NCBI RefSeq assembly: GCF_024700885.2
Contig: NZ_CP117016.1
Strand: one strand, 5' to 3'
Length of the DNA stretch: 64,000 nucleotides
DNA from: Escherichia coli
GTDB taxonomy: Bacteria > Pseudomonadota > Gammaproteobacteria > Enterobacterales > Enterobacteriaceae
A program made the translations under genes and the position numbers. The notes beneath the pieces were generated by a model. The model ran no database searches. It had not been told where the DNA came from and was given only the letters and a program-made list of their open reading frames with translations. Within the stretch, counting starts at the first letter, position 1, and the number at the start of each line of letters is the position of its first letter. Below, piece by piece: positions 40,262-41,422 of the stretch.

Positions 40262-41422
40262 TTAATCAAGTTTTTGCTGATGATACCGATACAGCATCAT
40301 TCTAAGTTTTAGCAAGGTTGTACTATCATTATCTGCAGAGCAAAAATTATACCAGCCTTCAGTATATTTATTTAAAGTATCAAAGTAATAATCCTTCAAT
40401 GGATCATCCCTATCTGAGTGGAGACAAGAAAACATCTTCTGAAGAATATAATTTAATTCACCTGTAGGAAGCCTCGAAATAATCACATCACAAGTAGTTG
40501 TTAAATCTTCAATATTCATTTTCTGAAGATTATTTCTAATCTCTAAAACGATCGGATAGAGTTTACTCAAAAACTCATTTACTTCATCTTGAAGATGCTT
40601 CTCTTTAACACAACCATCAAACAAATGAATTAACTCTTCCAATTGCATTCGGTAATAATCATTATTACCTCGTATAGCGACTTCTGAAAGAAGCAGCCTC
40701 AACTCATCATAAATGTTATCGGTGGATGATATAACTTGCGCGGACAAAACATCGTAATGGTTGTTACGAATTACCACTATAGAGTCCATTAGTTTTTCTA
40801 GATATTTATACCTACTTTCAACATATGAGATAAGCTCGTTAAATTTAATACCAAAAATAACATCATCCACACCGGGTTTGTTATTATAAAGACTTATAGT
40901 AAAATCATTATTATTAAGTGCATAAAAATGAGGCCAACTCGCAAACAATCTCTCCCCGTGGTTATTTTTAAGATTCGTAGGGTGAGCACCAAAAATAGCG
41001 CGAATACTCTTAAAATAAGAGTCATCATCCTCATGCGAAAGATAATGTATTTTATCCTTAAAAATATCAACAGAGCCTTTAAAGGGCCATTTCATAAAAT
41101 TATTGTCACTTTCAATAATACGATGGAGTTGCCGCACCGCTTCCACTATTATATCGATTGATGATATAATAGTATAAATCTGCATAGCTTTAATATCAAT
41201 GTCTTCAGATATTTCAGGGATGTTCATAAGATAGCGTACAGAAACAGTAATCCAATCCATGCATGAACAAATAGGGCTGAACTGATTTTTACCATTTCTG
41301 TTTATGAAGTAACTATAAACAAAATCTCTTTCATTAACTACATCGCGAAAATCCGTTATTAAAGTATCATTAATAGTTATACCAAAATTTGTCTTAGTTA
41401 TCTTCATGGTGACCATTTTCAC
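40262..41422 (-). CDS. Low-GC orphan cargo protein, candidate abortive-infection/defence protein with Rx5H (HEPN-like) motif
   Basis: 386 aa, about 30% GC, no TM segments; motif SIRAIFGAHPTN; inserted between D and ogr. Confidence 0.6.
   Translation of the reverse strand: MKMVTMKITKTNFGITINDTLITDFRDVVNERDFVYSYFINRNGKNQFSPICSCMDWITVSVRYLMNIPEISEDIDIKAMQIYTIISSIDIIVEAVRQLHRIIESDNNFMKWPFKGSVDIFKDKIHYLSHEDDDSYFKSIRAIFGAHPTNLKNNHGERLFASWPHFYALNNNDFTISLYNNKPGVDDVIFGIKFNELISYVESRYKYLEKLMDSIVVIRNNHYDVLSAQVISSTDNIYDELRLLLSEVAIRGNNDYYRMQLEELIHLFDGCVKEKHLQDEVNEFLSKLYPIVLEIRNNLQKMNIEDLTTTCDVIISRLPTGELNYILQKMFSCLHSDRDDPLKDYYFDTLNKYTEGWYNFCSADNDSTTLLKLRMMLYRYHQQKLD

Follow-up and report, generated by a model that had tools for sequence, protein, structure and literature searches.

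A low-GC gene between D and ogr of a P2-like prophage in Escherichia coli: member of a widespread unannotated protein family and candidate single-protein anti-phage module

Several described systems come close to the gene treated here, an open reading frame (ORF) on the minus strand between the late gene D and the late activator gene ogr of a P2-like prophage of Escherichia coli. It lies in a stretch of 64,000 nucleotides of contig NZ_CP117016.1, referred to below as the window. The exclusion genes and hotspot cargo of P2 (old, tin, fun/Z) are, like this gene, foreign, low in guanine plus cytosine (GC), dispensable for the phage and exchanged at a fixed slot of P2-like genomes. The sole P2 hotspot described by Rousset et al. 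2022 is that between gpA and gpQ (PMC9122126). P2-like phages have been found to bear defence hotspots, one of them an interval between a tail protein and CI (10.1101/2024.10.15.618418). Inside type I restriction-modification (R-M) operons, PrrC, RloF and TgvAB provide defence functions (PMC11411939), and seven of nine candidates found through "guilt by embedding" were validated (10.1101/2024.01.29.577857). The effectors of retrons are modular toxins, and the canonical type VI retrons have a helix-turn-helix (HTH) protein and a protein of 75-79 aa (PMC7736814). Also close are the single-protein HEPN and abortive-infection (Abi) proteins, namely Abi_2/AbiD-AbiF, AbiU2, AbiJ, HEC-08/DUF3644 and HepT toxins such as SO_3166 (PDB 5YEP).

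On balance we favour the view that the gene is a moron, acquired horizontally, which P2-like prophages carry in one of their minor variable slots, and that it encodes a self-contained, single-protein anti-phage module of the abortive-infection type. The polymorphism of the slot, the constraint on the family, a confidently predicted fold, the absence of a partner and the defence and mobile-element contexts are counted for this view. A solitary gene that is kept under selection, travels on diverse mobile elements, resides in defence islands and is at times embedded in R-M operons fits a stand-alone defence module. The features of the locus are the following:

40262..41422, minus strand: the ORF, at most 386 aa with a GTG start (1,161 nt; from the ORF list)
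40123..41582, no strand: low-GC single-gene cassette of 1,460 bp, delimited by alignment against the empty-site locus L012
ending at 40131, plus strand: late gene D, a VgrG-like tail protein (phrog_52)
41624-41884: ogr, regulator and late activator (NF007241, phrog_603)
40147..40185, no strand: inverted repeat with 15-nt arms, 93% complementary, and a 9-nt loop (repeat search)
41423..41582, minus strand: AT-rich 5' flank of the cassette and presumed promoter region, transcribed opposite to D and ogr

The prophage that carries the cassette lies between btuC (7079-8059) and ihfA (42521-42820). In the alignment with L012 homology ends at position 40122 of the window and restarts at 41583, so that 1,460 bp stand in place of 13 bp. 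D and ogr are 42 bp apart in the empty-site prophage, in agreement with the initial annotation, which had them as neighbours in canonical P2. The ORF is the only gene on the cassette. Its GC content is 0.321 (GC3 0.289), compared with 0.335 for the whole cassette and 0.527 for the remaining prophage, and the lowest-GC 800-bp stretch of the prophage falls on it (0.32, with the runner-up at 0.38). The first description of the gene, as a low-GC ORF of 386 aa opposite in strand to its neighbours and the most compositionally foreign gene of the prophage, was accurate. RefSeq, in a genome identical to the window, places the start at 41416 and lists a "hypothetical protein" of 384 aa (WP_231362158.1). 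The true start is likely to be the ATG at 41407, giving 381 aa, since the N-termini of homologs and the annotation of phage phi458 begin there. The ratio of nonsynonymous to synonymous substitution rates (dN/dS), at 0.125 when the window copy is compared with its 72%-identical phi458/plasmid counterpart, shows the ORF to be under purifying selection.

Since the ORF runs antiparallel to D and ogr, it needs a promoter of its own. In its 5' flank a weak TTGTGT-N16-TAAAAA was noticed at 41474-41447 on the minus strand, by eye only. The inverted repeat at 40147-40185 is part of the cassette and stands where D and the ORF converge, between their 3' ends. The 3' region folds with -43.2 kcal/mol (z = -5.0 against shuffles), and the repeat is likely a bidirectional terminator-like hairpin. 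A consensus terminator scan around the ORF did not flag it, because it has no T-run, and the consensus scans for promoters and terminators at this locus were set aside as uninformative.

The slot was surveyed in 5,426 complete E. coli genomes, about 1,270 of which contain the flanks of the D-ogr junction. The cassette occupies it in 19 of these, once interrupted by IS3, and is thus far from being present in most P2-like phages at this locus. Cargo types were taken from an evenly spaced sample of junction matches. Some 60% of the sampled junctions are empty, an occupancy of about 40%, and at least 8 other single- or two-gene cargos occur, among them a ParA-like gene, hypothetical genes of 221 and 339 aa, DUF3800, a PIN-domain protein, ComF/PRTase with a hypothetical gene, an alpha/beta hydrolase and insertion sequence (IS) elements. 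Presence or absence and replacement at a fixed position between core genes, combined with foreign composition, are the marks of mobile-element hotspot cargo, and the cassette shows all of them. Compared with the known P2 hotspots, among which iLund4u lists the interval between a tail protein and CI as a "third hotspot", the junction is neither gpA-gpQ nor Z/fun, its occupancy is lower, and none of its cargos has been validated or recognised by PADLOC as a defence gene; nor is the window protein related in sequence to Old, Tin or Fun. D-ogr is truly a site for cargo, though a minor one, and is not established as a defence hotspot. A literature search by family accessions and by locus returned no paper on D-ogr cargo or on the family.

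The gene is not the orphan it was taken for, as it has hundreds of homologs. The family comprises 125 clusters at 90% identity and at least 327 at 50% identity, 229 of the latter with E<=1e-10, and extends over Proteobacteria, Firmicutes, Spirochaetes and Mollicutes. Members occur in Enterobacterales, Vibrionaceae, Moritella, Psychrobacter, Marinomonas, Shewanella and Methylophaga, and also in Sphaerochaeta, Bacillus/Paenibacillus, many Clostridia and one mollicute. None of the clusters carries a name or a Pfam domain. The query, the profiles A1 and A2, and 63 members taken individually found no match in PADLOC, NCBIfam, PHROGs, Pfam or the PDB sequences, and a Pfam search of the query was empty even at E<=10, which bears out the earlier failure to assign the protein to a named family. 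When 5.8 billion proteins were searched for annotated relatives with a broad family profile, the best 120 matches were all unannotated. An AlphaFold2 model was obtained with a predicted local distance difference test score (pLDDT) of 88.6 and a predicted template-modelling score (pTM) of 0.79; its Foldseek matches in the AlphaFold database are all uncharacterized proteins. Within the libraries and literature searched, the family is undescribed so far.

The protein has no signal peptide and, as stated at the outset, no transmembrane segment, the maximum Kyte-Doolittle mean over 19 residues being 1.36. A P-loop is likewise missing: the sequence contains no Walker A motif (G-x4-GK[ST]), the AlphaFold2 model has no P-loop fold, and no ATPase family was matched. 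Two parts can be distinguished in it, and one motif in the first of them:

40733..41374, minus strand: N-terminal conserved core, about residues 17-230 (alignments A1/A2 and AlphaFold2 model)
40265..40732, minus strand: C-terminal all-helical domain, about residues 231-386 (AlphaFold2 model and alignments)
40982..41002, minus strand: codons of the Rx5H motif, R141-A-I-F-G-A-H147 (family alignments)

In the model the core consists of helices and a three-stranded sheet, and it holds all the universally conserved polar and aromatic residues, S53, W57, D90, F121, D133, R141, H147, S162 and W163. Its mean column identity is 0.58 versus 0.46 for the C-terminal part. In an alignment of 63 family sequences reaching down to 24% identity, W57, F121, D133 and H147 are invariant, and S53, D90, F137, R141, F144, G145, A161, S162, W163, R251 and Y325 are conserved in at least 90%. 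The C-terminal domain, a candidate for a sensing or regulatory role, is more variable, and the alignment of many remote homologs stops at about residue 310. A Cys/His metal site or a cysteine protease centred on CSCMDW was rejected because the Clostridia branch conserves neither C54 nor D56; there the proteobacterial CSCMDW degenerates to CS[VA]M[HN]W and RAIFGAHP is kept.

The Rx5H motif of the protein, SIRAIFGAHPTN with R141 and H147, had been taken as a marker of HEPN ribonuclease active sites. It is present and is the best-conserved motif of the family. The bare motif is within chance, as the protein contains three Rx4-6H matches, shuffled sequences average 1.5, and the probability of at least one is 0.79; it is meaningful only because R141 and H147 are conserved family-wide. 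A conserved R-x5-H within a helical domain is counted for RNase-like chemistry, which we advance as a secondary and tentative claim, doubtful as it stands. Comparison with an ApeA protein by hhalign gave a probability of 0.6%. The HEPN label is unproven.

The genomic setting of the family was followed at 68 loci, 63 from species-representative genomes plus the earlier ones, with neighbours clustered within 6 kb. No partner gene is conserved. The commonest neighbour, a serine recombinase, is found at 11 of the 68, and a conserved two-gene system was rejected on that account. By simple count, a recognised defence gene lies within about 5 kb in some 12 of 16 independently annotated contexts. The neighbours tallied are type I and II R-M, Gabija-like, AbiH with PIN, AAA_13 with Mrr, GmrSD-like, PDC-S02, LmuA/Avs-like, retron reverse transcriptase (RT) and Card1 genes. 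In Moritella the family gene adjoins a Gabija-like pair of AAA_15/OLD-TOPRIM and UvrD, a PIN_4-Ank protein and NOV_C; in Klebsiella aerogenes it is found beside AAA_13, Mrr and resolvases, and in Sphaerochaeta beside HsdR and a GmrSD-like/HEC-06 protein. PDC-S02 adjoins it at four Clostridia loci, and LmuA/Avs1a-like and Avs2-like genes at three loci.

Mobile elements of several kinds carry the family. An Edwardsiella integrative and conjugative element (ICE) of the SXT/R391 type has the gene in the variable region between bet/exo and traN, Pantoea has it at a prophage end next to a large serine recombinase, and in phage phi458 it adjoins a DNA invertase. Thirty plasmids bear it, 22 of them conjugative. 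On pSC138 its neighbours are AbiH and PIN, with partition genes close by, and on a further plasmid it adjoins a type II R-M pair.

Type I R-M genes are within the flanks of 5 of the 68 loci, with the family gene adjacent at three and embedded at two (L015, L082). In Paraclostridium the order is hsdM-hsdS-family gene-hsdR, with gaps of 12 and 2-20 bp, and in a Lachnospiraceae metagenome-assembled genome the gene is likewise embedded between hsdS and hsdR. These members hold the exact position of PrrC, between hsdS and hsdR in the same operon. The resemblance to the PrrC and RloC anticodon nucleases extends to a conserved Arg/His pair in a helical domain and, by analogy, to the proposed logic of a latent suicidal back-up to restriction. 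The family protein differs from them in having neither an N-terminal ABC/P-loop ATPase nor a Walker A motif, and it resembles no HEPN family in sequence or profile; most members, including the window copy, are not linked to R-M, and there are no hsd genes at D-ogr. The PDC models of the guilt-by-embedding screen are contained in PADLOC-DB v2 and none was matched, so that the screen did not capture the family.

The likeness to retron effectors, for example the HEPN effector of type IX, comes from four Clostridia loci, where the family gene begins 0-30 bp downstream of a full-length RT of the retron RT_VI type (PADLOC E 7.5e-63), itself preceded by a 73-aa ORF. In these uncultured Clostridia (L069, L070, L071 at 8681-11041, and L079 at 9137-11041) the 73-aa ORF, the RT_VI RT and the family member follow one another head to tail with gaps of 0-60 bp, and they may form a non-canonical retron-like system with the family member as effector. 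The canonical type VI partners, an HTH protein and a protein of 75-79 aa, do not belong to this family, the window has no RT, and sibling loci, whose proteins are 70-80% identical, lack the link to RT_VI. An Rfam search for retron noncoding RNA at the four loci found none. The family was rejected as a general retron effector since an RT is present at only 4 of 68 loci, is gone from the siblings and is unaccompanied by a retron noncoding RNA.

Three clusters (P0067, P0077 and P0082) are fusions of the family to a 241-aa N-terminal domain. This domain (L008 1316-3196, L063 9233-10288 and L009 6001-6705) is also abundant as a stand-alone protein, with more than 2,600 matches, and has the strongly conserved motifs YFGDxNDY, FLDPDNG and YQHF. 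It is found in defence and toxin-antitoxin (TA) islands, one member lying among AIPR, ApeA, PIN/Phd and PemK genes, and may be a second uncharacterised defence-island family. It matched nothing in PDB, Pfam, PHROGs, NCBIfam or PADLOC; being a huge family that is likewise without annotation, it offered no clue to function. A 262-aa gene that adjoins a stand-alone family member proved unrelated.

From these observations a mode of action can be proposed. The gene is a transcription unit in its own right, on a single-gene cassette that is foreign and low in GC; it is under purifying selection as judged above and has no partner gene. In the lysogen it would be expressed from its own promoter. The N-terminal core, with W57, D133, R141-x5-H147 and S162-W163, would be the catalytic effector, most plausibly a metal-independent nuclease of the R/H type acting on RNA in the manner of HEPN proteins or PrrC. 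The variable C-terminal helical domain would keep the protein latent and would sense infection or the inactivation of another defence. Activation upon infection would lead to growth arrest of the infected cell, and competing phages would be blocked.

Several results weigh against an anti-phage role or against this mode of action. PADLOC-DB v2.0.0, which includes the PD-T4/T7/lambda, HEC, PDC-S and PDC-M models, gave 0 families at E<=1 with the query and with the fusion proteins, so that the check for a known system proposed by the initial annotation came back empty. Nor did Pfam or Foldseek back the likeness to HEPN or Abi proteins that it had raised: neither the query nor any of the 63 members matched a Pfam HEPN or Abi family (clan CL0291, including Abi_2, AbiU2, DUF86 and DUF3644), and Foldseek of the AlphaFold2 model against the PDB gave no convincing match. 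In the model Rx5H lies at the C-terminal end of a helix, and the residue after its Arg is A or S, not N, D or H. A consensus promoter scan of the 5' flank, 41423..41582, gave no site. Among the other D-ogr cargos sampled there was no confident PADLOC match; the junction is therefore unsupported as a proven defence hotspot, and the slot itself adds little weight. Residency in defence islands is equally typical of TA and other selfish modules. The defence role is argued from context and sequence. In its general form the original proposal of a single-gene defence or Abi candidate is supported by the family's contexts, the polymorphic slot, the lack of a partner and the purifying selection.

The alternative that survives best, though we consider it unlikely, is that the gene is a selfish module of the stabilisation or toxin type, or else a moron with a role outside defence, in fitness or lysogenic conversion, with a benefit other than phage blocking. 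The family does ride on prophages, ICEs and conjugative plasmids, recombinase or resolvase neighbours are frequent (11/68 loci), and the pSC138 copy is near partition genes. The prophage of the window already has a hok/sok module and a ParM cassette, and the ParA-like and hydrolase genes among the other D-ogr cargos have no defence assignment. A type II TA system has an adjacent small conserved partner, and here the cassette has one gene and no neighbour is shared across the 68 loci; no antitoxin-sized partner is present in the one or conserved in the other. The embedding between hsdS and hsdR and the recurrence of Gabija-like, Abi, R-M, Avs-like and retron genes next to it form a defence signature, not that of a metabolic or virulence moron, and neither a signal peptide nor a transmembrane segment points to a surface or virulence factor.

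It is rather improbable that the protein is an accessory or back-up component dependent on type I R-M or on a retron-type RT, on the model of PrrC with EcoprrI or of retron effectors with RT-msDNA, in which case the isolated P2 copy would be inactive or would rely on a partner in the host. The co-oriented, tightly packed position within hsd operons, with gaps of 12-34 bp, the spacing of 0-30 bp behind RT_VI at four loci and the fusion to another defence-island protein family in three clusters are what such dependence would predict. However, type I R-M is nearby at only 5 and an RT at only 4 of the 68 loci, the siblings with 70-80% identical proteins have no RT, and most copies, that of the window included, are solitary cassettes under purifying selection; an autonomous function is therefore favoured over an accessory role.

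An anti-defence function, for example anti-restriction, would agree with carriage by phages, ICEs and conjugative plasmids and with the physical closeness to R-M systems, and is nonetheless highly improbable. In chromosomal hsd operons the gene is co-transcribed in the same orientation, and an inhibitor makes no sense when transcribed together with the system to be inhibited. The P2 copy is placed like a lysogen-type moron, at the end of the late genes and on the opposite strand, rather than in an early or leading region, and a protein of 380 aa with a conserved, catalytic-looking core is unlike the typical small anti-defence proteins. That the ORF is an ordinary structural or regulatory gene of this P2 lineage, as its position among late genes beside the activator ogr might suggest, or is spurious, is effectively refuted by the distribution data, since it is missing from about 98% of prophages with the same junction, has no significant PHROG match or homology to a structural or regulatory phage protein, is foreign in composition and has homologs in non-phage contexts across phyla, while dN/dS of 0.125 and the confident fold exclude a spurious ORF.

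Other parts of the prophage were inspected as well. The gpA-gpQ hotspot (15704-18092) holds a cassette of ParM and a partition protein, an ead/Ea22-like pseudogene and a frameshifted hypothetical gene. No recognised defence system was found in it, and therefore the D-ogr gene may be the main candidate defence cargo of the prophage. Two overlapping hypothetical genes (146 and 120 aa) are found at 8268-9067, minus strand, with the attachment site of the btuC side on one flank and the integrase on the other; a 2026 preprint reports this att-int position among the minor defence hotspots of P2. Second in foreignness of composition is a "transferase" gene (GC about 0.38) at 32557-33120, minus strand, by the tail-fibre assembly gene in a Z/fun-type slot. 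From ogr to the end of the prophage there is room for a hok/sok-type module (41929-42215), which most P2-like prophages of this lineage have together with ogr; it consists of a Hok/Gef family coding sequence at about 42075-42215, annotated in the identical RefSeq genome, and a match to sok antisense RNA at 41929-42088, whose 49.2 bits (E 2.7e-9) fall short of the gathering score of 59.

The canonical P2 order is FI-FII-E-T-U-D. In the window the FI-FII-E-T-U tail block (33291-39034) is on the minus strand, divergent from D on the plus strand. The resulting FI/D junction is present in 1,354 of the 5,426 E. coli genomes; the inverted block is therefore the normal layout of the lineage, and the idea that it marks the prophage as rearranged or defective was rejected. 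At 38902-40131 RefSeq has D as a truncated 262-aa VgrG/Pvc8 protein and a pseudogene fragment. The D ORF matches phrog_52 from residue 43 to the end, and the data suggest that D is intact and starts near 39034. Just outside the prophage, the enterobacterial small RNA STnc540 is matched at 42423-42579, minus strand, with 37.3 bits against a gathering score of 38 (E 7e-6); the match extends over the 3' end of ihfA and sequence downstream of it. From 49700 to 64000 the window is ordinary core chromosome, with an arpB-like ORF of 632 aa and ORFs of the sizes of ydjN, ydjO (low in GC) and katE, all named from size and order only; in strain E-1246 a lambdoid prophage occupies this position.

A wider formulation of the stand-alone anti-phage reading is possible, though we hold it with considerable reserve. 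The family may be a class of stand-alone immune effectors that is both new and widespread, whose fold has no counterpart in the PDB and whose non-HEPN active centre is built on the invariant His147, Asp133 and Trp57 together with Arg141. It would be used alone on prophages, ICEs and plasmids, as an ATPase-free, PrrC-like back-up in type I R-M operons, coupled to retron-type RTs, and fused to a second unannotated defence-island domain.

To a specialist an unknown candidate in a P2 slot is unsurprising; what makes it a worthwhile target is that the family is broad and entirely without annotation, that its fold is unmatched, and that some members are placed like PrrC or linked to retrons. Should the protein prove not to be a defence factor, it would still represent a conserved, well-defined and unannotated fold family for structural genomics. 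If the anti-phage role were validated, the D-ogr junction would become a further cargo slot of P2-like prophages, several hundred "hypothetical" sequence clusters would gain a function, and a new single-gene system would enter the anti-phage repertoire. Since the family occurs alone, within type I R-M operons and behind retron RTs, it offers a compact model (about 380 aa, no partner, no NTPase) of how a latent effector is silenced and triggered. Enteric pathogens carry it on conjugative plasmids and on SXT-like ICEs, which is relevant to the prediction of host range in phage therapy.

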